A DNA stretch of 64,000 bases. Source: an uncultured Bacteroidales bacterium (lineage in GTDB: Bacteria > Bacteroidota > Bacteroidia > Bacteroidales > FEN-979). A program made the position numbers and the translations under genes. A model generated the notes under the pieces. That model searched no databases and was not told the origin of the DNA. It saw nothing but the letters and a program-made list of their open reading frames with translations. Positions 821-38,065 of the stretch are shown in pieces (within the stretch, counting starts at the first letter, position 1; each line of letters begins with the position of its first letter). The stretch lies in assembly GCA_903915465.1 (NCBI GenBank), contig CAIWTA010000046.1, positions 1,364-65,363 of the forward strand. The letters are read 5' to 3'.

Positions 821-1771
821 GTGAACAAAGAAGAATTTTCCTGGGGAAACAACCGCCGGTATAATTCATATTCGGAATATATCAGGAAACTCTTTGGTGA
901 GAGAGTACAAAAAGTTGCCGTGGATGCAGGTTTCACCTGTCCTAACCGCGACGGAACGAAAGGTATTGGTGGGTGTACTTATTGCGATAACGAGGCTTTC
1001 AACCCTTCCTACTGCGATCCGAAGGAATCCATTACTGAGCAGATCCGCAAAGGAATTGAATTTCATGCTGTAAGGTATCGTCGTGCTGCCCAATTCCTTG
1101 TCTATTTTCAACCCTTCAGCAACACCCATGCTTCCATTGAAGTACTGAAAGAAAAGTATGAAGAAGCGTTGCTATACCCGGGAGTTGTCGGACTTGTAAT
1201 TGGAACACGCCCGGATTGTGTGGATGATGAGAAACTCAGTTACCTTTCCGCACTGGCAAAAAATTATTTTATCCAGGTTGAATATGGCGTAGAAACAACA
1301 AATGAGGCCACCTTGACCAGGATAAACCGGGGCCATACTTTTGAATTATCCCGAAAAATAATTGAGAAAACACATTCCCTGGGAATTCGCACAGGAGCCC
1401 ATTTCATCTTCGGTTTGCCAGGTGATACCCTGGAAGGGATGATGGAAATGGCAGGTCAAGTCTCCTCTTTGCCGATCGATACAGTCAAATTCCATCAACT
1501 TCAAATCATCAAAGGAACGGTACTTGAAAAAGAATTCCAGGCTGATCACTCAGGATTCCATCTCTTTGGCCTCAATGAATACATTGATTTTATTGTGAGT
1601 TTCACAGAAAAGCTCAATCCTTCAATCGTCATCGAGCGATTTACCGGGGAAGTCCCGCCAAGGTTCATTGAAAGTCACAATTGGGGATTGTTGCGGAATG
1701 ATGAGATACTCCGGCTGATCGAGAAAGAGTTTGAGCGGAGAGATAGCTGGCAGGGGAAGAATCATATCTGA
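821..1771 (+). CDS. TIGR01212/YhcC family radical SAM protein
   Basis: DAGFTCPNRDG...GGCTYC cluster motif, IGTRPDC, RINRGH. Confidence 0.92.
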   Translation: MNKEEFSWGNNRRYNSYSEYIRKLFGERVQKVAVDAGFTCPNRDGTKGIGGCTYCDNEAFNPSYCDPKESITEQIRKGIEFHAVRYRRAAQFLVYFQPFSNTHASIEVLKEKYEEALLYPGVVGLVIGTRPDCVDDEKLSYLSALAKNYFIQVEYGVETTNEATLTRINRGHTFELSRKIIEKTHSLGIRTGAHFIFGLPGDTLEGMMEMAGQVSSLPIDTVKFHQLQIIKGTVLEKEFQADHSGFHLFGLNEYIDFIVSFTEKLNPSIVIERFTGEVPPRFIESHNWGLLRNDEILRLIEKEFERRDSWQGKNHI

Positions 1772-1839
1772 GATCTGAGCACCGAACTCCGATAGAAAAC
1801 CGGCTCTCGGATCTCGGATCTCGGATCTCGGATCTCGGA
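1767..1839. repeat. Inverted heptamer arrays: TCTGAGA-TCTGAGC (1767-1780) and (TCTCGGA)x5 (1805-1839)
   Basis: Read directly; lies between convergent yhcC-like gene and pstB; same unit as 16561-16672 and 17190-17224. Confidence 0.92.
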
Positions 1840-1856
1840 TTTGCCAGTTTCACTGA

Positions 1857-2618
1857 TCAATTGAACGTTCCGCCAAGGTACTGCTTAGTCTTCTCCATTT
1901 TCGGATTTTCAAAAATCATAAAATTTGTACCCTGTTCTATTACTTCACCCAGGTACATGAATACCACATAATCAGCAATTCTTTTCGCCTGTCGTAAAAC
2001 ATGTGTAACCAGCACGATGGTATAATCTTTTTTCAGTTCAACAAACTTCTCCTCGATGCTTTGACTTGAAATAGGATCCAATGCAGAAGTCGGTTCATCC
2101 GCCAGGATGATATCGGGACTCACTGCCAGGCCACGGGCCAGACAAAGTCTCTGCTGCTGCCCAATGGATAAGTTAGAAGCAGGTTCCCGCATACGGTATT
2201 TCACTTCCTCCCATAAATTTGCCTGTTGCAGGTAACTTACCACTTGTTTGTGCAGGTCTCTTCTTTTCTTTACACCTTTCAGTTTTAAAGCATAAGCCAC
2301 ATTATTATAAATGTTCATAGGAAGCGGATAGGGTCGCTGGGAAAGCAAACCCATGTGTTGCCGAAGTTGATAAATATCTTCTTTGGCCTCCAATACATCA
2401 TTTCCATCAATCATAACTTTACCGCTGACTTTCAACTCAGGATACAGGTCAGTCAAGCGGTTCAGGCATTTCAGCAAGGTGGTCTTTCCACAACCGGAAG
2501 GACCGAGTATTACTGTGATTTTGTTCTTTGGAATCTCAATATTGATATTTTTCAGGATTTGGGTTTTCCCGGCAGCGACATTCAGGTTAACAATGCTTAT
2601 TTTACTGGTGTTTTCCAT
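1857..2618 (-). CDS. pstB: Phosphate ABC transporter ATP-binding protein
   Basis: GPSGCGKT Walker A, LSIGQQQRLC, DEPTSALDP; operon with pstACS; alternative GTG start at 2630. Confidence 0.93.
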   Translation of the reverse strand: MENTSKISIVNLNVAAGKTQILKNINIEIPKNKITVILGPSGCGKTTLLKCLNRLTDLYPELKVSGKVMIDGNDVLEAKEDIYQLRQHMGLLSQRPYPLPMNIYNNVAYALKLKGVKKRRDLHKQVVSYLQQANLWEEVKYRMREPASNLSIGQQQRLCLARGLAVSPDIILADEPTSALDPISSQSIEEKFVELKKDYTIVLVTHVLRQAKRIADYVVFMYLGEVIEQGTNFMIFENPKMEKTKQYLGGTFN

Positions 2619-13777: not shown

Positions 13778-13987
13778 AGAATGCGGTTTTTAGCAGATCT
13801 GTTTGAAAAGTTAAATTTCATGCTTAAAATTACAAATAATACCAAAACAAACTAAAAAAGGACAAAAAAACCTCAATTCAAAGGATCGTTGTATGGAAAT
13901 TGATCATTCACTTCAATTTTCGTAAATTCGCAAAGAATTTCCTAATGCAGGAATCTTCAATTGATTGTTACACTGCACAGATTATCT

Positions 13988-15271
13988 ATGCTACAGCAAA
14001 TTCTCATAATTATAACCCTCCTCCTGATAAATGGCTTTTTTGCCATGTCAGAAATTGCGATTGTTTCATCCAGAAGGTCACGGCTGGAAGAACTGCTCAG
14101 GAAAGGACACAAGAATGCAAAGCTGGTACTTAAGCTTTCAGAAACGCCCAATCGTTTTCTTTCTACTGTCCAGGTTGGTGTTACACTGATCGCCATTATG
14201 ATCGGGGTTTTCAGTGGTGGTGATTTCTCACACAGGTTTGCGAAGTTCTTTCTTGACCAGGGTCTTGTTGAACCTTATCCCCAAAGACTCTCAATTACCC
14301 TGATCGTTCTTGTGATAACGTTCTTTTCAATTATCATTGGCGAACTTGTTCCCAAAAGAATCGGGATGAGTAACCCTGAAAACATTGCTATGCTGGTTGC
14401 AAAACCAATGTTGCTTATCTCAAGGATAATTACGCCTTTTGTCTGGCTTCTTAGCATTTCCACGGATTTTCTTGTAAAATTGTTTAACATCAAACCCAAA
14501 ACAGCCTCCCAGGTTACTGAAAATGAAATTAAAGCCTTATTGGAAGAGGGAACTGAATTCGGAACTATCCAGGAGATCGAGCAGGATATCGTGGAACGAG
14601 TGTTCCACCTGGGGGATCAAAGGATCGGCGCCCTGATGACAAACCGGAACGATATTATCTGGCTTGATATTGAGGACCCGGTGGAGGAAAATCTTAGAAA
14701 AATAACTTCCAGCACACATTCGATATACCCGATCAGTGAAAAAGAGCTGGATGATCTTCTTGGGATAATTTATTCCAAGGACCTGTTGCTGGCCGTCATC
14801 AACAATCCCAATCTGGAATTAAAAGAGCATATCAAACCTGTGAATATATTTCCCAGCGACCAAAATGTTTACCAGGTCCTGGAAAAATTCAAGGAAACAT
14901 TTATTCATTATGGTGTTGTTGTAGATGAATATGGATCTGTAGAAGGAGTGATCACCCTGAACGACATCATGGATGGTTTGGTTGGAGACATTACCGATAT
15001 GGATGAACCGGAAGTCATCCAACGTTCGGAAGACAGCTGGCTGATTGATGGAAAACTTGCCTTCTTTGAGTTCCTTCATGAATTTGAAATCCACAATGAC
15101 GATTTCACGGATGCCCAGTTTCACACAATCGGGGGGTTTGTGATCCACCAGCTACAGGCTATTCCTAAAACCGGTACTACATTTGATTGGAATGGATATC
15201 GTTTTGAAATTGTTGATATGGATGGAAACAGGATCGATAAGATCATGTTGACCAAACTGTCTTCAGGCTAA
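13988..15271 (+). CDS. HlyC/CorC (CNNM-CBS-CorC) family membrane protein
   Basis: NGFFAMSEIA, FLSTVQVG, GELVPK, CBS pair VVDEYG, C-terminal DMDGNRIDKI. Confidence 0.92.
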   Translation: MLQQILIIITLLLINGFFAMSEIAIVSSRRSRLEELLRKGHKNAKLVLKLSETPNRFLSTVQVGVTLIAIMIGVFSGGDFSHRFAKFFLDQGLVEPYPQRLSITLIVLVITFFSIIIGELVPKRIGMSNPENIAMLVAKPMLLISRIITPFVWLLSISTDFLVKLFNIKPKTASQVTENEIKALLEEGTEFGTIQEIEQDIVERVFHLGDQRIGALMTNRNDIIWLDIEDPVEENLRKITSSTHSIYPISEKELDDLLGIIYSKDLLLAVINNPNLELKEHIKPVNIFPSDQNVYQVLEKFKETFIHYGVVVDEYGSVEGVITLNDIMDGLVGDITDMDEPEVIQRSEDSWLIDGKLAFFEFLHEFEIHNDDFTDAQFHTIGGFVIHQLQAIPKTGTTFDWNGYRFEIVDMDGNRIDKIMLTKLSSG

Positions 15272-15302
15272 TATTTAATTGTCAACATTTTTTTTGAACA
15301 AA

Positions 15303-15393
15303 GAATATTGATCAACGATTTTTGATTTAGGAAGTAATAGTCAGGAGGAAAGGTCAAAACACATCTGAATTCAAAAATCGTTAATCAATATTC
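15303..15393. repeat. 23-bp imperfect inverted repeat with 7-nt periodicity
   Basis: GAATATTGATCAACGATTTTTGA (15303-15325) vs TCAAAAATCGTTAATCAATATTC (15371-15393), 1 mismatch. Confidence 0.85.
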
Positions 15394-15408
15394 GATATTC
15401 AATTTCGT

Positions 15409-16593
15409 ATGAATTCATCCGGCCGGTCTCAACTGAAAAGTATCTTCAATCCGGTCAGGGAACTGGCCGAAAATGGAAGATTATCAGGAATCCTTCTGAT
15501 AATGGCAACCCTATTTTCAATCATTTTCAGCAATACGGGAAACGCCTCTTCATACCTACAGATATGGCACTCAGAAATTGGCCCAACTTTTCTATCCAAG
15601 TCTATTTTACACTGGATTAACGATGGATTAATGCCGTTTTTTTTTCTATTGGTAGGAATTGAGATTAAGAGGGAAATGGTATCCGGCGAACTTTCGCAGT
15701 TTCGCCAGGCAATACTTCCGGGATTTGCAGCCATAGGAGGAATGTTAGTTCCTGCATTCATTTATATTTTCTTCAATAATGGAAATCCGGAAACAAGCCA
15801 CGGATGGGCTATACCAACTGCCACCGACATTGCCTTCTCGCTCGGACTGCTTTCTTTATTGGGGAAAAGAGTCCCATTTGCATTGAAAATATTCCTGACA
15901 GCGCTTGCCATCATTGATGACCTTGGAGCAATTATCATCATTGCAGTATTCTATACAAGCAGCCTGAATCTGTTGATGCTGGTAATGTTCCTCCTGATCT
16001 TTGTTTTATTGCTGATTTTAAACCGTTTCAAAGTCCGGTTCATGTTCCCTTACCTTCTTTTGGGAACGATGCTCTGGTATTTTGTCATGAAATCAGGAAT
16101 TCATCCTACAATTGCCGGTGTTCTTATGGCTTTCTCCATACCTGTAACCATTGCTGAGAAACTGGAAGAAAAGCTGACAAAAGCTGTGTATTATTTCATT
16201 CTTCCTCTTTTTGCTCTGGCCAATACGGCTATCCCGCTGTCGTTCGACATGGCAGCGAATCTGCTTTCACCCATGTCAATGGGAATTATTTTGGGATTGT
16301 TGATCGGTAAGCCTGTAGGGATTGTTCTTTTCACTTACATCCTTGTGAAGACAAGAATCAGCGAAATGCTGGCGGGGATCAAATGGAAACAGATGATTGG
16401 AATCGGGATGGTAGCAGGGATCGGGTTTACCATGTCGATCTTTATTGCATCCCTTTCATTTTCCTCCGGTTTCCTTTCGGACATATCAAAACTTGCCATC
16501 ATTGGAGGGTCGGTACTTTCGGCCATTGTCGGGTTGTTAACTCTGTGGAGATCATTCAGATCTGAGATCCGAGATCCGAGATCCGAGATATGA
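15409..16593 (+). CDS. nhaA: Na+/H+ antiporter NhaA
   Basis: WINDGLM, EIKRE, GWAIPTATDIAF, LAIIDDLGAI, GIGFTMS; last residues derive from the heptamer repeat. Confidence 0.96.
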   Translation: MNSSGRSQLKSIFNPVRELAENGRLSGILLIMATLFSIIFSNTGNASSYLQIWHSEIGPTFLSKSILHWINDGLMPFFFLLVGIEIKREMVSGELSQFRQAILPGFAAIGGMLVPAFIYIFFNNGNPETSHGWAIPTATDIAFSLGLLSLLGKRVPFALKIFLTALAIIDDLGAIIIIAVFYTSSLNLLMLVMFLLIFVLLLILNRFKVRFMFPYLLLGTMLWYFVMKSGIHPTIAGVLMAFSIPVTIAEKLEEKLTKAVYYFILPLFALANTAIPLSFDMAANLLSPMSMGIILGLLIGKPVGIVLFTYILVKTRISEMLAGIKWKQMIGIGMVAGIGFTMSIFIASLSFSSGFLSDISKLAIIGGSVLSAIVGLLTLWRSFRSEIRDPRSEI

Positions 16594-16672
16594 GATCCGA
16601 AATCTGAGATCCGAGATATGAGATCCGAAATCTGAGATCCGAGATCCGAGATCCGAGATATGAGATATGAGA
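16561..16672 (+). repeat. Heptamer tandem array, 16 units of TCCGAGA/TCTGAGA/TATGAGA/TCCGAAA
   Basis: Counted directly; overlaps nhaA 3' end. Confidence 0.95.
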
Positions 16673-16692
16673 CAAATAATAATCAGGATTCT

Positions 16693-17076
16693 TCATTTTA
16701 TCCCAATTTTTTCTTTCATTTTTCTCTTTATTGAGTTGAATATTCTGACAAGCTGATCAACCTCATCGTGTATATTCTTGATTTCATCTGTTGACAACAT
16801 GTTGATCCTCAAAAGATATTCAAGCCAGAAAAGTGTTTCATCGCACTCTTCAGTTACAATACATATTTTTGAAAAGAATTCTGCATTTGATCTTGCTCTT
16901 GTCGCTGCACTGAAGTTGGCAGCAACCGATGAAGAGCTTCTAATTATTTGACTGACTGTTGGGTTGGTCAGGAAAGTCAACTTTTTTGATTGAAAAAGAC
17001 CATTGATATTTATAGCCATCTTCATTGTTCTTTCCCGAAGCATCTGATTGTATCTATCCTTTTCCGAATTTGTCAT
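16693..17076 (-). CDS. Four helix bundle protein (TIGR02436 / 23S-IVP, Avd-like fold)
   Basis: QIIRSSSSVAANF..A.RARS.AEFFSKI.IV.EECDETLFWL signature, 127 aa. Confidence 0.92.
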   Translation of the reverse strand: MTNSEKDRYNQMLRERTMKMAININGLFQSKKLTFLTNPTVSQIIRSSSSVAANFSAATRARSNAEFFSKICIVTEECDETLFWLEYLLRINMLSTDEIKNIHDEVDQLVRIFNSIKRKMKEKIGIK

Positions 17077-17189
17077 GTTTGATTTTCCCCTTAATCATGG
17101 AAAATCAAAAAAGTCATACATTTAATGAATCGAAAATTCAGAAATAAGAATTCCAAAAGAATAAAGCTAAAAACTGAGTATTTTTCAAT

Positions 17190-17224
17190 TCTCAGATCTC
17201 GGATCTCGGATCTCAGATCTCAGA
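17190..17224 (-). repeat. Heptamer tandem array, 5 units (TCTCAGA/TCTCGGA on +), inverted relative to 16561-16672
   Basis: Read directly; contains the stop codon of the 17220-18398 gene. Confidence 0.93.
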
Positions 17225-18398
17225 TCTGTCTCACCAACATAACCGTTCCCTTATTGCTGACCTTGGCCTTTTTGTTGTCTTCGTAATAGATTGCCCAGCA
17301 ATAGATTCCTTCCGGGCACTGTTGTCCATTCATTTTTCCATCCCATGATTCAAGGATGTTGGTGGAAGTGAAAACAACCTGTCCCCAACGATTGAATATC
17401 TGAAGATTATATTTTGTGATATTCTCTACAGGAAGTCCGACAATCCTGAATTCATCATTAACACCATCACCATTTGGAGTAAAACCGTTCGGGATCCTTG
17501 GCAAAACAACTACTGTTACAGTAGTGTCGAATTGTTCTCCGAGGCAAAGTGTCATAGTGGCCCTGTAAGTAGTGGTTTGAGAAGGAACAACGGTGATACT
17601 TTGTTCATTACTGATGAAGCTGGAGCCTTCGTACCAGCTATAACTGATCTTGTTTCCGGGAACCAGTGGTTCAAGATGAAAAGGTACGGAAGAGATTGCA
17701 AAACTATCTACAGGAATAGGATTATACTGCCATCCCTCCTTCTCAGCAGACCACGAAGTTGCATTTCTTCCCGGAACTGCAAACCCGATCATGCCGGTCT
17801 CATTCTGTACTCCAAGGGTTCCTTTATAATTGTCGGGACATTGGGGCTTCCTGAAAATCTGATTCTCGATTGTGTTAATTCCTTCATGAAGAATGATCTG
17901 GAATGTAGCAACCAGGTCAGTTGGACACCTAAACATTGGCGTTTGGCACCACATAACGACCAATTTCCGGTTTGGCGATTCTCCTATCGTCAGGTAGTAA
18001 ATATAATTTCCTAAAGCATCGGGGAGCAAGTCGACAAATGGTCCGAGAATGCAGATTTTAGGATTGTACAGGACGCTGCTCGGGACTGCAAAAACAGTTC
18101 GGATCCCCGCAGAGCTTACATTGGGAATGAAGCTGATCCATCCATTGGCACCAATCCAGAATTGGTGGTAAATATTTCCAAAGAACATGAAATCAAATCC
18201 AATCGGGAAAGGACCTTCCACTCCGTCATCATCAGTAGTAACAGGAATCCCAATCTCACCATACGTGGCGGTAAGTGTCACAGGAACACCCTGATTGATT
18301 GTATCATTTGGTCCTGCAGAAAATTGTGCATGGCATATCAGAGAGTACAAGCAGAAGCAGGGGATGATAAGGATCAGTTTGATCAGTCTGCTTTTCAC
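17220..18398 (-). CDS. Secreted protein with gliding motility-associated (T9SS type B) C-terminal domain
   Basis: Signal peptide; IPNGFTPNGDGVNDEF...IFNRWGQVVF...WDG. Confidence 0.88.
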   Translation of the reverse strand: MKSRLIKLILIIPCFCLYSLICHAQFSAGPNDTINQGVPVTLTATYGEIGIPVTTDDDGVEGPFPIGFDFMFFGNIYHQFWIGANGWISFIPNVSSAGIRTVFAVPSSVLYNPKICILGPFVDLLPDALGNYIYYLTIGESPNRKLVVMWCQTPMFRCPTDLVATFQIILHEGINTIENQIFRKPQCPDNYKGTLGVQNETGMIGFAVPGRNATSWSAEKEGWQYNPIPVDSFAISSVPFHLEPLVPGNKISYSWYEGSSFISNEQSITVVPSQTTTYRATMTLCLGEQFDTTVTVVVLPRIPNGFTPNGDGVNDEFRIVGLPVENITKYNLQIFNRWGQVVFTSTNILESWDGKMNGQQCPEGIYCWAIYYEDNKKAKVSNKGTVMLVRQI

Positions 18399-18475
18399 TT
18401 GATTTCAGGTTTTGAAACTGATAATACTTTTCTCATTTTCCCTACAAAATTGATCAATAAATTTGAAATAAGTCT

Positions 18476-18483
18476 TACTTTTG
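18476..18483 (+). promoter_or_regulatory. Bacteroidota sigma-70 -7 element (TACTTTTG) for glyA
   Basis: TAnnTTTG match upstream of glyA. Confidence 0.55.
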
Positions 18484-18539
18484 TTTATTAAATCTCCTGA
18501 TTCGGTTCCAGCGGATCCGAATTTCTAAAAAATCTATCT

Positions 18540-19820
18540 ATGAAAAAAGACATTCAGGTATTCAATGTCATTAAAAAAGAATTGCATCGCCAAACCAATG
18601 GTATTGAGCTGATCGCATCCGAGAATTTTGTCAGTGACCAGGTATTGAAAGCTATGGGGTCCTGTCTTACAAACAAATATGCCGAAGGATACCCGGGAAA
18701 AAGGTATTACGGAGGATGTCAGTTTGTAGATGAATCCGAACAGCTTGCCATCGACCGTGCAAAGGAATTGTTTAACGCCGAATGGGCCAATGTACAACCA
18801 CATTCAGGTGCACAGGCCAACATGGCTGTATTGATGACAGTCCTGAAACCCGGAGATTCATTCATGGGGCTGGATCTTGCGCATGGAGGCCATCTTTCGC
18901 ATGGATCGCCGGTAAATTCATCAGGAATATTGTATCGTCCATTCGCTTACCAGGTTGAAGAATCAACAGGTATGATCAACTATGATAAGATGGAAGCCCA
19001 GGCCGTTCTAAACAGACCCAAGCTTATCATTGCGGGTGCTTCTGCTTATTCCCGCGACTGGGATTATAAACGAATGCGGCAGATCGCCGATAAGGTCGGA
19101 GCCATTCTGATGGCTGATATTGCTCATCCGGCAGGATTGATTGCACGTGGATTGCTCAATGATCCTGTTCCATGGTGTCACATCATTACTACAACTACAC
19201 ATAAGACGTTGCGTGGGCCAAGAGGCGGAATGATCCTGATGGGAAAAGATTTTGAAAATCCATGGGGAGTAAAAACGCCAAAAGGGGAAACGAAAATGGT
19301 TTCAGCCATGCTGGATTCTGCGGTATTCCCAGGAATTCAAGGCGGTCCCTTAGAACATGTTATAGCTGCTAAAGCTGTTTCTTTCTACGAAGCACTTTCT
19401 GATGAATACATGGACTATATACTCCAGGTTAAGAAAAATGCCACAGTAATGGCAAAGGCCTTTGTTGACAAAGGATACCATGTAATCTCCGATGGCACTG
19501 ATAACCATCTCATGCTGATCGACCTCAGGAAGAAATTTCCAGACATCACAGGAAAACAGGTAGAGAATACACTCGTGAAAGCTGATATCACGGTGAACAA
19601 AAACATGGTTCCTTTTGATAGCCGTTCTCCATTCCAGACATCCGGGCTAAGGGTTGGAACACCTGCAATTACGACACGCGGATTAAAAGAAAAACACATG
19701 CCGGCGATTGTTGACCTGATCGATGAGGTAATAAGTGATATTGAAAATGAAGCCAGGATTGCCAAAGTTGCAAAGAAAGTAAATGAAATGATGGAAGAGT
19801 TTCCTTTGTTTGCATACTAA
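18540..19820 (+). CDS. glyA: Serine hydroxymethyltransferase
   Basis: [37 protein letters not shown] lysine. Confidence 0.98.
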
Positions 19821-19839
19821 TTGTGCTTATTATGAAAAT

Positions 19840-20337
19840 ATGAAAACCCTTTATTTGGCGCGTCACACAAAATCCTCCTGGGAAATGGAAGGTATCGACG
19901 ACTTTCACCGGCCATTACTGGATAAGGGGATTGAAAAAACAAAAAAAGTAATTAAATATTTAAATCATTTACAAATCAACGTTGATAAAATCATTTCAAG
20001 TCCTGCCGTAAGAGCGCTGGAAACAGCCAAACTCATTGCTGCAGGCATTGATTTTCCGAAAGAAAAGATCCTGATTGAACCAAGGATATATGAAGGATCT
20101 GTCGACAGAATAGTAGATCTAATCTACGCTACAGAAGATACGTTTGATTCTTTGATGATATTTGGGCACAATCCCGCCATCACTTACCTGGCTAACCTTT
20201 TTTTAAATCCCGGAGTCGAATTCATACCAACAATGGGAATAGCCTGCGTTTCCTTTGATACAGACAAATGGTCGGAAATCCCTCTGGCAGAGACTAAAAA
20301 CGAATTCATACTGTTTCCGAAATCGCTACCAGATTAA
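19840..20337 (+). CDS. SixA-type histidine phosphatase family protein
   Basis: LYLARHTKSSW, D..RPL, SSPAVRALETA, FGHNP; start chosen at MKTL. Confidence 0.88.
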   Translation: MKTLYLARHTKSSWEMEGIDDFHRPLLDKGIEKTKKVIKYLNHLQINVDKIISSPAVRALETAKLIAAGIDFPKEKILIEPRIYEGSVDRIVDLIYATEDTFDSLMIFGHNPAITYLANLFLNPGVEFIPTMGIACVSFDTDKWSEIPLAETKNEFILFPKSLPD

Positions 20338-26300: not shown

Positions 26301-26364
26301 ATCAACTCATCAACTCATCAACTCATCACCCCATCAGCTCATCACCTCATCAACTCGTCAATAC
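26301..26364 (+). repeat. Octamer tandem array (ATCAACTC consensus), 7 units plus a degenerate eighth
   Basis: Read directly; same unit at 33312-33355 and 38034-38065. Confidence 0.9.
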
Positions 26365-33311: not shown

Positions 33312-33355
33312 ACTCATCAACTCATCAACTCATCAACTCATCAACTTATCAACTC
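33312..33355 (+). repeat. Octamer tandem array ATCAACTC x5
   Basis: Read directly in the intergenic gap before cutC. Confidence 0.92.
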
Positions 33356-38033: not shown

Positions 38034-38065
38034 ATCTCTCCATCAACTCATCAACTCATCAACTA
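38034..38065 (+). repeat. Octamer tandem array ATCAACTC (about 4 units)
   Basis: Read directly, just past the secA stop. Confidence 0.8.

Follow-up and report, generated by a model that had tools for sequence, protein, structure and literature searches.

An inverted heptamer-array cassette around an S23p-family gene outside rRNA in an uncultured Bacteroidales bacterium

A four-helix-bundle gene between inverted heptamer arrays

The subject of this work is a small cassette in a stretch of 64,000 nucleotides (hereafter the window, meaning that stretch at its full length) from the genome of an uncultured Bacteroidales bacterium, an assembly of 4.07 Mb in 329 contigs whose gene sets are crude calls of open reading frames (ORFs). 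The cassette consists of a gene for a four-helix-bundle protein (16693..17076, minus strand; 127 amino acids), assigned by family scans to TIGR02436/PF05635 (S23p, the protein of intervening sequences, or IVSs, of 23S rRNA), and of two inverted arrays of tandem heptamers between which this gene is the sole ORF. The left array, which is the 3' arm with respect to the gene, occupies 16558..16666 and contains 15–16 heptamers (variants AGATCCG, AGATCTG, AGATATG and AAATCTG) arranged in a 28-nt higher-order repeat. In the Tandem Repeats Finder (TRF) output, a period-7 row at 16558–16659 corresponds to 14.6 copies and a period-14 row that reaches 16666 to 15.6 heptamers; a regular-expression count gives 15 consecutive units in this arm and four strict units in the opposite one. 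The right array, or 5' arm (17190..17227), has 5.4 heptamers by TRF (TCTCAGA or TCTCGGA). Its unit is the reverse complement of the left-arm unit and complements the outermost units of the left arm, with 37 matches over 39 columns in the inverted alignment of the two arms. The stop codon is separated from the left arm by a 26-nt trailer (16667..16692, minus strand), and the start codon from the right arm by a 113-nt leader (17077..17189, minus strand); in an alignment with a metagenome contig carrying the same locus (L106), the ~45 nt of the leader that adjoin the ATG are conserved. An earlier sequence-only reading of this DNA had described 16 and 5 heptamers of opposite orientation enclosing nothing but a 127-aa gene, which agrees with the TRF counts and the single ORF found here.

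The cassette occupies the entire gap between two convergent genes, nhaA, for a Na+/H+ antiporter (15409..16593, plus strand; TIGR00773 392.7 bits, PF06965 447 bits), and a gene for a type IX secretion system (T9SS) cargo protein with a type-B sorting domain (CHU_C; 17220..18398, minus strand; TIGR04131, PF13585). That reading had placed the block between these same convergent genes and, indeed, both host ORFs end inside the arrays: comparison of ORF and array coordinates shows that the left array encodes the final 12 codons and the stop codon of nhaA, AGATCYG units thereby contributing a tail to NhaA, and the stop codon of the T9SS cargo gene falls within the outermost right-arm unit. With such flanks the four-helix-bundle locus is not within an rRNA gene, and positions 16300–17500 matched no rRNA family in Rfam, yielding only sub-threshold chance matches. 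Among the five neighbouring ORFs scanned with Pfam (13961–20337), namely CNNM/CorC, NhaA, the T9SS cargo protein, SHMT and a histidine phosphatase, there was no reverse transcriptase, nuclease or invertase, template and variable repeats not being part of the search. The cassette protein was without match in PADLOC and PHROGs. We detected neither a sigma-70-like promoter site nor a TAnnTTTG consensus box in the 113-nt leader on the minus strand, and no intrinsic-terminator-like site between the T9SS stop codon and the four-helix-bundle gene, which makes read-through from the T9SS gene plausible. A hairpin just 5' of the start codon is no better than those of shuffled sequences (z ~ -0.9) and its pairing differs in L106.

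The protein scores 69.9 bits against TIGR02436 (cut-off 24) and 51.3 bits against PF05635 (cut-off 33.8), and its AlphaFold2 model consists of four helices (residues 3–29, 38–58, 64–90 and 96–124; predicted local distance difference test score 96.6). Foldseek placed 2rld (BT_0352; E = 7e-5, TMt 0.83) and 2gsc (XCC0516; TMt 0.82) at the top, the former being retrieved as well by a profile search of PDB sequences (5e-29); next came Avd (4dwl) and structures of the ribonucleoprotein of diversity-generating retroelements (DGRs), with probability 1.00 and TM-scores of 0.70–0.81. The fold shared with Avd, asserted in the sequence-only reading, is thus supported by structural comparison, and PF05635 and Avd are described as homologous in PMC10053308. 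The likeness to Avd (PDB 4dwl; DGR ribonucleoprotein 8ub7) lies in this common four-helix-bundle fold; by contrast, sequence identity is only ~14% and no reverse transcriptase occurs among the five scanned neighbours. Both solved homologues, 2rld and 2gsc, have five chains each, XCC0516 (2gsc) being reported as a homopentamer (PMC4990558, PMC10053308). In an alignment of 56 sequences, N54 is invariant and Q43, S50 and E80 are nearly so. Compared by eye with the family motif GxxRxxxSxxxNxxE given in PMC3936711, the window protein has R46, S50 and N54 and an alanine at the glutamate position, as do its orthologue in L106 and a homologue at another locus (L025, see below).

Recurrence of the layout across the gene family

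Inverted arrays of the same unit, detected by TRF on both sides of an ORF, bracket only 9 of the 3,023 crude ORF-genes of the genome, and five of these nine are TIGR02436 genes (Fisher p ~ 1e-12). The remaining 4 bracketed ORFs, out of ~3,014, comprise three large genes lying between two separate hairpins and one weak AT-rich match. Short arrays abound in this genome (391 period-7 and 292 period-8 TRF rows), and arrays are nonetheless far commoner beside TIGR02436 genes than elsewhere, with 5 of the 9 family matches bracketed against 4 of ~3,014 other ORFs, which was the comparison that the earlier reading had proposed. A TRF-free test, based on the inverted local alignment of the two 260-nt flanks of each gene with a threshold score of 36, gave a similar picture: 10 of 664 small genes reached the threshold (five TIGR02436, two Y1-transposase and one GxxExxY gene among them), and so did 43 of 67 cassettes against 5 of 659 small genes outside the family. 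The inverted bracketing of TIGR02436 genes is not due to chance. It is hardly credible, therefore, that the heptamer arrays are generic terminators or otherwise common at gene ends, with the gene merely lying by coincidence between two of them. It is true that the genome contains ~170 loci of such arrays and that these are enriched between convergent genes (5 of 14 for AGATCYG and 14 of 31 for AAAGTCG, against 13% of all gaps), but same-unit inverted bracketing is almost confined to the TIGR02436 family, the design recurs in unrelated genomes and phyla, and L106 preserves the cassette as one unit.

The nine TIGR02436 matches of the genome include five bracketed genes, equal to five of the seven intact genes with both flanks available, each with its own unit: AAAGTCG/AAAGGC, ATTTACG, the 8-mer TGATGAGT, AGATCYG, and AATGTCT with AATTATTCT. 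Two of the other four matches, on contigs C82 and C155 (the latter near the contig end), are intact and unbracketed, one is cut by a contig end and one is a truncated pseudogene. The paralogs are just 14–33% identical to the window protein; the closest one in the same genome, a pseudogene on contig C19, is 48% identical, truncated at its 5' end and interrupted by two stops. An AGATCYG mini-hairpin lies ~200 nt from this pseudogene with a tRNA-Arg gene in between, such that their association is ambiguous.

Beyond this genome, relatives were searched with the family model, the loci so retrieved being kin and not statistically independent. The family is present in 18 of the 21 relatives' genomes, with 0 to 22 copies per genome, and 18 of the 29 best-scoring loci pass the strict TRF test, each with its own unit. 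Across the order, 11 of 29 loci from 29 other genomes pass strictly and 23 of 29 have arrays on both sides. We also examined 13 of 29 plasmid records matched by tblastn in which the gene is annotated as ‘four helix bundle protein’ or ‘S23 ribosomal protein’. Nine of these 13 loci reach the flank-alignment score and at least 10 of 13 show, by eye, inverted arms of 7–8-nt units. They span four phyla (Cyanobacteriota, Bacteroidota, Pseudomonadota and Gemmatimonadota) and the genera Nostoc, Anabaena, Trichormus, Calothrix, Pseudanabaena, Geminocystis, Stanieria, Riemerella, Azospirillum and Gemmatirosa. In Azospirillum lipoferum 4B (plasmid AZO_p2, 13792–15330) an unannotated S23p-type ORF with inverted arms of GAGGACG type is located within a 23S rRNA gene (RF02541, 906 bits), so that a genuine IVS shares the heptamer-array arms. 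The layout of a gene plus inverted arrays is thus a property of the whole gene family, a genuine 23S rRNA IVS included.

The rRNA IVSs of Coxiella burnetii (in helix 45) and Azospirillum lipoferum resemble the window cassette in two respects: a PF05635/TIGR02436 protein is encoded in the loop, and terminal inverted repeats with tandem heptamers in the arms form a long stem. Leptospira provides a further example, known through citation, of an ORF-bearing 23S rRNA IVS. The window cassette differs from them in lying between protein-coding genes and in its long microsatellite-like arms of 15 and 5 units, and excision by RNase III has been shown for rRNA IVSs only. In the Coxiella IVS, 3–4 tandem heptamers (GACAGAT) precede the S23p ORF and the 28-bp stem is cut by RNase III (PMC4990558). 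The same authors thought that S23p is not made, whereas the window gene is under strong purifying selection (see below). ORFs of the family have also been described in rRNA insertions of the candidate phyla radiation (CPR; PMC11270868), and PMC8491059 and PMC8700078 mention the family incidentally. A general enclosure of S23p/TIGR02436 genes by inverted arms of tandem repeats was not stated in any paper retrieved by our literature search, supplementary files aside, and the gene-plus-repeats package is a general and long-lived design of the whole family that is apparently undescribed.

Some of these cassettes were encountered in CRISPR-cas operons, a location from which the family is already known (PMC3936711), repeat arms being unmentioned in the searched passages of that paper. 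The cassettes of L046 and L062, from relatives in the order, lie directly upstream of an ORF that by eye is cas2-like, and those of Anabaena sp. 90 (pANA02; L082) and of a Pseudanabaena galeata plasmid (L088) between annotated cas6 and cas4 genes. The two genes for ribonucleotide reductase subunits on the Nostoc edaphicum plasmid pNe_5 have between them a cassette with AGTAGGG/TCCCTAC arms, on the strand opposite to both.

Other small genes are enclosed in a comparable way. GxxExxY genes (TIGR04256), which encode an unrelated family of small proteins, lie between inverted arms of tandem units of ~10–11 nt in three of the three intact cases of this genome (C144:31231–31608, C291:150–497 and C124:27050–27379), and 5 of 12 GxxExxY loci in relatives (L094–L105) reach the alignment score. 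A 166-aa lipoprotein-like ORF (C92:26137–26637) is bracketed by AATGCAG/AATTCAG arrays together with a 25-bp unique inverted repeat. We considered the GxxExxY protein, as a nuclease, for an obligatory helper of the four-helix-bundle cassettes and rejected it, since genome G008 has four-helix-bundle genes and no GxxExxY match and genomes G014 and G016 show the reverse. Y1 transposases were likewise discarded as mobilisers: the genome has six PF01797 matches, and none of the five loci examined carries heptamer arrays.

Age and movement of the cassette at the nhaA/T9SS locus

The gene order of contig L106 matches that of the window (nhaA, cassette, T9SS gene, SHMT), with identities of 77% for NhaA, 73% for the T9SS protein and 73% for the four-helix-bundle protein. 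Its arms are still made of GAGAT-type heptamers (GAGATTT and variants), and the NhaA tail there again ends within the array. Synonymous sites are saturated between the two sequences (pS 0.74), and dN/dS is 0.056 for the four-helix-bundle gene, 0.075 for nhaA and 0.053 for the T9SS gene. This copy of the cassette is old, vertically inherited and under purifying selection as strong as that on its neighbours, which fits poorly with a recently inserted or decaying element. The sequence-only reading had proposed that repeats and gene form a unit that spreads or is excised; its first half stands, the layout recurring in the genome, in relatives, in several phyla and in a 23S IVS, but its second half is not supported for this copy, which has an orthologue in L106 and a dN/dS of 0.056.

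An nhaA orthologue occurs in only 5 of 12 genomes of the genus (58–63% identity). In one of them (G003), nhaA is followed after ~105 nt by the orthologue of the T9SS gene, with no cassette and no arrays, and the locus is thus not invariant across relatives, a point that the earlier reading had singled out for checking. In another genome (G002, locus L040), solo arrays of other heptamers lie 3' of nhaA (CCGACTG x8 and TCATGTG x4), the same nhaA end attracting different arrays in different genomes. The public metagenome contigs that contain the locus come from lake and pond water (three studies, all DNA). One of them, of 571 nt, corresponds to the cassette interior. In a run from another study (X5), a contig crosses the left arm into the gene in the orientation of the window, and its left arm is 42 nt (six units) shorter, at 16559–16602, revealing a polymorphism in unit number. 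No metagenome contig spans the whole cassette because contigs end in the arrays, and none of those holding the locus, all short-read contigs breaking at arrays, has a cassette-free nhaA–T9SS junction.

These observations bear on whether the cassette could be purely selfish, that is, a transposase-less mobile element moved by some unknown or trans-acting machinery, with a protein that serves only its spread. Its patchy and multi-copy distribution, with between 0 and 22 copies in each of 21 relatives, would agree with this, as would the cassette-free nhaA–T9SS junction of G003 and the position of the nearest intact homologue among the 21 searched genomes of relatives (L025; 55% identity), which lies at another locus among unrelated neighbour genes. 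Pseudogenes are also frequent, 34 of the matches listed having internal stop codons (12 in the search of relatives and 22 in the order-wide search), and ~27 gene-less hairpins resembling MITEs (miniature transposable elements with inverted repeats) share a terminus with the cassette of contig C237. We nevertheless regard a purely selfish nature as unlikely. The window copy is orthologous to that of L106 at saturated divergence with a dN/dS of 0.056, as low as that of host genes, and no metagenome contig joins nhaA directly to the T9SS gene. The cassette encodes neither transposase nor nuclease, and none of the cassettes of the genome contains a transposase. The five examined Y1-transposase loci (of six Pfam matches) are without heptamer arrays, four-helix cassettes exist in G008, where GxxExxY was not found, and no target-site duplication can be defined, cassette ends being tandem repeats. 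Movement is visible only on an evolutionary time scale, in the form of the 55%-identical homologue elsewhere, the gene-less copies and a flipped interior.

This last feature comes from L106, whose four-helix-bundle gene is on the other strand: its leader, gene and trailer align to the minus strand of the window, while the flanks remain collinear, implying that the interior has flipped between the arms. An invertible, phase-variable segment, in which the direction of the interior would decide whether the gene is read from nhaA or from the T9SS gene, would account for an inversion of the whole interior between arms that are inverted repeats of 38–109 bp. We judge it improbable, however, given that the only contig crossing an arm into the gene (X5), all others breaking at the arrays, has the orientation of the window, that there is no invertase among the five scanned neighbours, and that any inverted repeat would be expected to yield one fixed inversion in the long run. 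An apparent joint in run X1 that places the two sides on opposite strands is not readable, its short side having only 32 letters in near-palindromic units.

Arms, dispersed arrays and the possible action of the protein

The capacity of the arms to pair, claimed in the sequence-only reading, is supported by the predicted fold of the 706-nt sense RNA, in which the right arm pairs with the outer portion of the left one in a closing stem of ~40 bp (minimum free energy -217.5 kcal/mol, z = -6.2) and the surplus left-arm units fold on themselves. The genome encodes an RNase III (186 bits). In a set of 44 cassettes from this genome, relatives and plasmids, the first arm on either strand is G-rich in 40 of 42 (binomial p = 4e-10) and usually rich in purines (33 of 41). 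Since both strands of an inverted repeat read alike, this G-rich-first rule is about how the hairpin is configured, not about which way the gene points. The similarity of arms also follows that of proteins, 5-mer similarity rising from 0.024 below 25% protein identity to 0.076 at 45–60%, 0.38 at 60–80% and 0.71 above 80%, with a flat spacer control near 0.14. The Mantel correlation is 0.19 for pairs below 60% identity (reached by 0 of 3,000 permutations) and 0.13 for pairs below 45% (1 of 3,000). For instance, ATTTACG arms are shared by two proteins of 48% identity that come from different families of the order, and a GATTGA clade and a GTGA clade form further groups with shared arms. Together, the unit core conserved at saturated divergence and the covariation of protein and arms favour a sequence-specific role for the units. 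The suggestion of the sequence-only reading that the protein may bind the repeats gains indirect support from these features, and meets a counter-example in L025. Arms usually have 4–6 units in the relatives and order-wide loci, and the solved homologues have five chains.

Most of the arrays of the genome enclose no gene of this family. Ranked by number of loci, the 7–8-nt array families are led by ATTTACG (51 loci), AAAGTCG (35), AATGCAG(G) (24), AGATCYG (20), ACTCATCA (19) and AATTCAG(G) (18), so that the units of four cassettes occupy the first, second, fourth and fifth ranks; for AATGCAG(G) and AATTCAG(G) the assembly holds no cassette. The arrays are intergenic and occupy short gaps adjoining the start and stop codons of numerous genes. 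Most members of the ATTTACG family are MITE-like hairpins of 90–260 bp with an idiosyncratic terminal inverted repeat, units with a fixed GG/CC interruption, that is common to the gene-bearing copy; it bounds ~27 gene-less hairpins (such as C12:9286–9426, C124:1126–1271 and C243:5169–5303) as well as the cassette C237:25565–26161. The AAAGTCG, ACTCATCA and AGATCYG families are mainly solo arrays at unrelated sites, and different families often abut. Unit families are genome-specific: among five genomes of the genus, three consecutive GAGGTCA units gave 36 and 43 matches in two and 0 in three, CACCCTGT x3 gave 48 in one and 0 in the other four, and CGTGACG x3 gave 133, 63, 10, 5 and 2, with reversed-pattern controls at 0. 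We infer that the gene-less arrays derive from cassettes.

Several known repeat systems offer points of comparison. Like MITEs, the ATTTACG family has gene-less 90–260-bp copies that share a terminal inverted repeat with a gene-bearing copy, but there is no transposase-bearing parent, no defined target-site duplication, and the termini are made of tandem units. Repetitive extragenic palindromic (REP) and REPIN elements with their RAYT transposases are dispersed short repeats associated with a Y1 HUH transposase gene; as in the window genome, the gene is flanked by inverted copies of a dispersed repeat and each paralog has a separate repeat family, the differences being the four-helix-bundle cargo instead of a Y1 HUH transposase and the tandem arrays instead of single palindromes. 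The short tandemly repeated repetitive (STRR) sequences of cyanobacteria are comparable dispersed heptamers, and small dispersed repeats of Nostoc, reportedly treated by Elhai et al. in 2008, may bear on prior art. Intergenic heptamer repeats have been described in Xanthomonas (GGGAATC) and Nostoc (GGGGAYT), for which G-quadruplexes were proposed (Rehm et al. 2015, PMC4692102). As here, these are abundant intergenic 7-nt arrays of unknown function that often occur as convergent inverted pairs; unlike the window arrays, they come with no link to this gene family, the words S23 and intervening being absent from the searched text of that paper.

On balance, we favour, by a modest preference, an IVS-type hairpin cassette situated outside rRNA whose protein probably acts on its own repeats. 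The module would comprise the S23p/TIGR02436 gene, its leader and trailer, and a pair of inverted arrays that close it and share a single unit, here AGATCYG. In a read-through transcript, probably started from the T9SS gene, the arms would pair over ~40 bp and, by analogy with rRNA IVSs, the paired stem could be a substrate of RNase III, the cassette RNA being thereby separated from the host message. The putatively pentameric, Avd-like protein would act on its own units, as RNA or single-stranded DNA, and so keep the unit sequence constrained. Arrays would change length by slippage, arm-to-arm recombination would invert the interior and, over long times, the module might be gained, lost, relocated or decay into gene-less arrays.

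Several observations weigh against this proposal. Since the related loci are not independent, the counts are descriptive of the pattern and no proof of it. Arrays in direct instead of inverted orientation, or in an array–gene–array–inverted-array order, occur in L046, L060, L070 and L088. Mismatches between arms are of G.U type in 44 cases, of A.C type in 45 and transversions in 88; without an excess of the G.U class, selection for pairing in the sense RNA is not supported, and arm complementarity may be kept at the DNA level or through arm-to-arm conversion. The arms of L025, the closest intact homologue, are unrelated 8-mers of GGTAAAAT type, indicating a loose relation between protein and unit. 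The unrelated GxxExxY cargo with the same design implies that arms need no four-helix protein in cis, and the abundant AATGCAG(G) and AATTCAG(G) arrays, with no four-helix-bundle gene in the assembly, bracket an unrelated ORF. L025, such orphan array families and the GxxExxY cargo caution against a simple code of one protein for one unit.

A protein acting on repeats might instead belong to the host, as a repeat-reading, RNA-binding pentameric regulator for which the dispersed arrays would be the regulon and the cassette arms an autoregulatory site, with no mobility involved; TRAP is a regulator of this kind, a ring that reads RNA repeats. The strong selection on the protein, the conserved unit core, the cognate arrays that fill short gaps beside the start and stop codons of many genes, and the match between arms of typically 4–6 units and homologues with five chains would all suit such a regulator. 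Yet units and paralogs turn over fast and are genome-specific, pseudogenes are frequent, and the presence of the design in rRNA genes and in cas operons would be expected of an inserted element more than of a regulon, which makes this possibility rather improbable.

An extension of the IVS-type cassette proposal, more speculative than it and held only tentatively, is that every TIGR02436 pentamer specifically reads the sequence of its own unit. Cassette and dispersed arrays would then compose a two-part system, comparable to RAYTs and REPINs or to a ring protein and its regulon of repeats, distributed from CPR to cyanobacteria and inside rRNA genes, and would be the source of the long-noted excess of intergenic heptamers in bacteria. 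If so, the G-rich-first rule (40 of 42) would reflect the strand used by the protein or by whatever process generates arrays. The TIGR02436/PF05635 family is large and has solved structures but no assigned function, being known only as an IVS ORF, as a relative of Avd and as an unexplained guest of cas operons, and heptamer microsatellites are over-represented between bacterial genes with no role assigned to them either. Were the two shown to belong together, or their pairing to be kept by selection, each would gain a concrete, testable partner, the conserved protein, the conserved repeat core and the fixed G-rich-first polarity being the evidence here, and rRNA IVSs would be one habitat of a much wider cassette. 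In practical terms, short-read assemblies break at the arrays, which also encode additional tails on host proteins, as for NhaA here.

Other arrays of the window, identified by TRF and in the sequence, illustrate the gene-less forms. A gene-less AGATCYG mini-hairpin (1767..1840), with ~2 units, a 24-nt loop and 5.7 inverted units, fills the gap between two convergent ORFs (1439–1771, plus strand, and 1857–2618, minus strand). Three solo octamer arrays of ACTCATCA type (26301–26361, 33312–33355 and 38041–38064) each occupy a short intergenic gap, 3–73 nt from neighbouring ORFs, and their unit flanks a four-helix-bundle cassette on contig C205.

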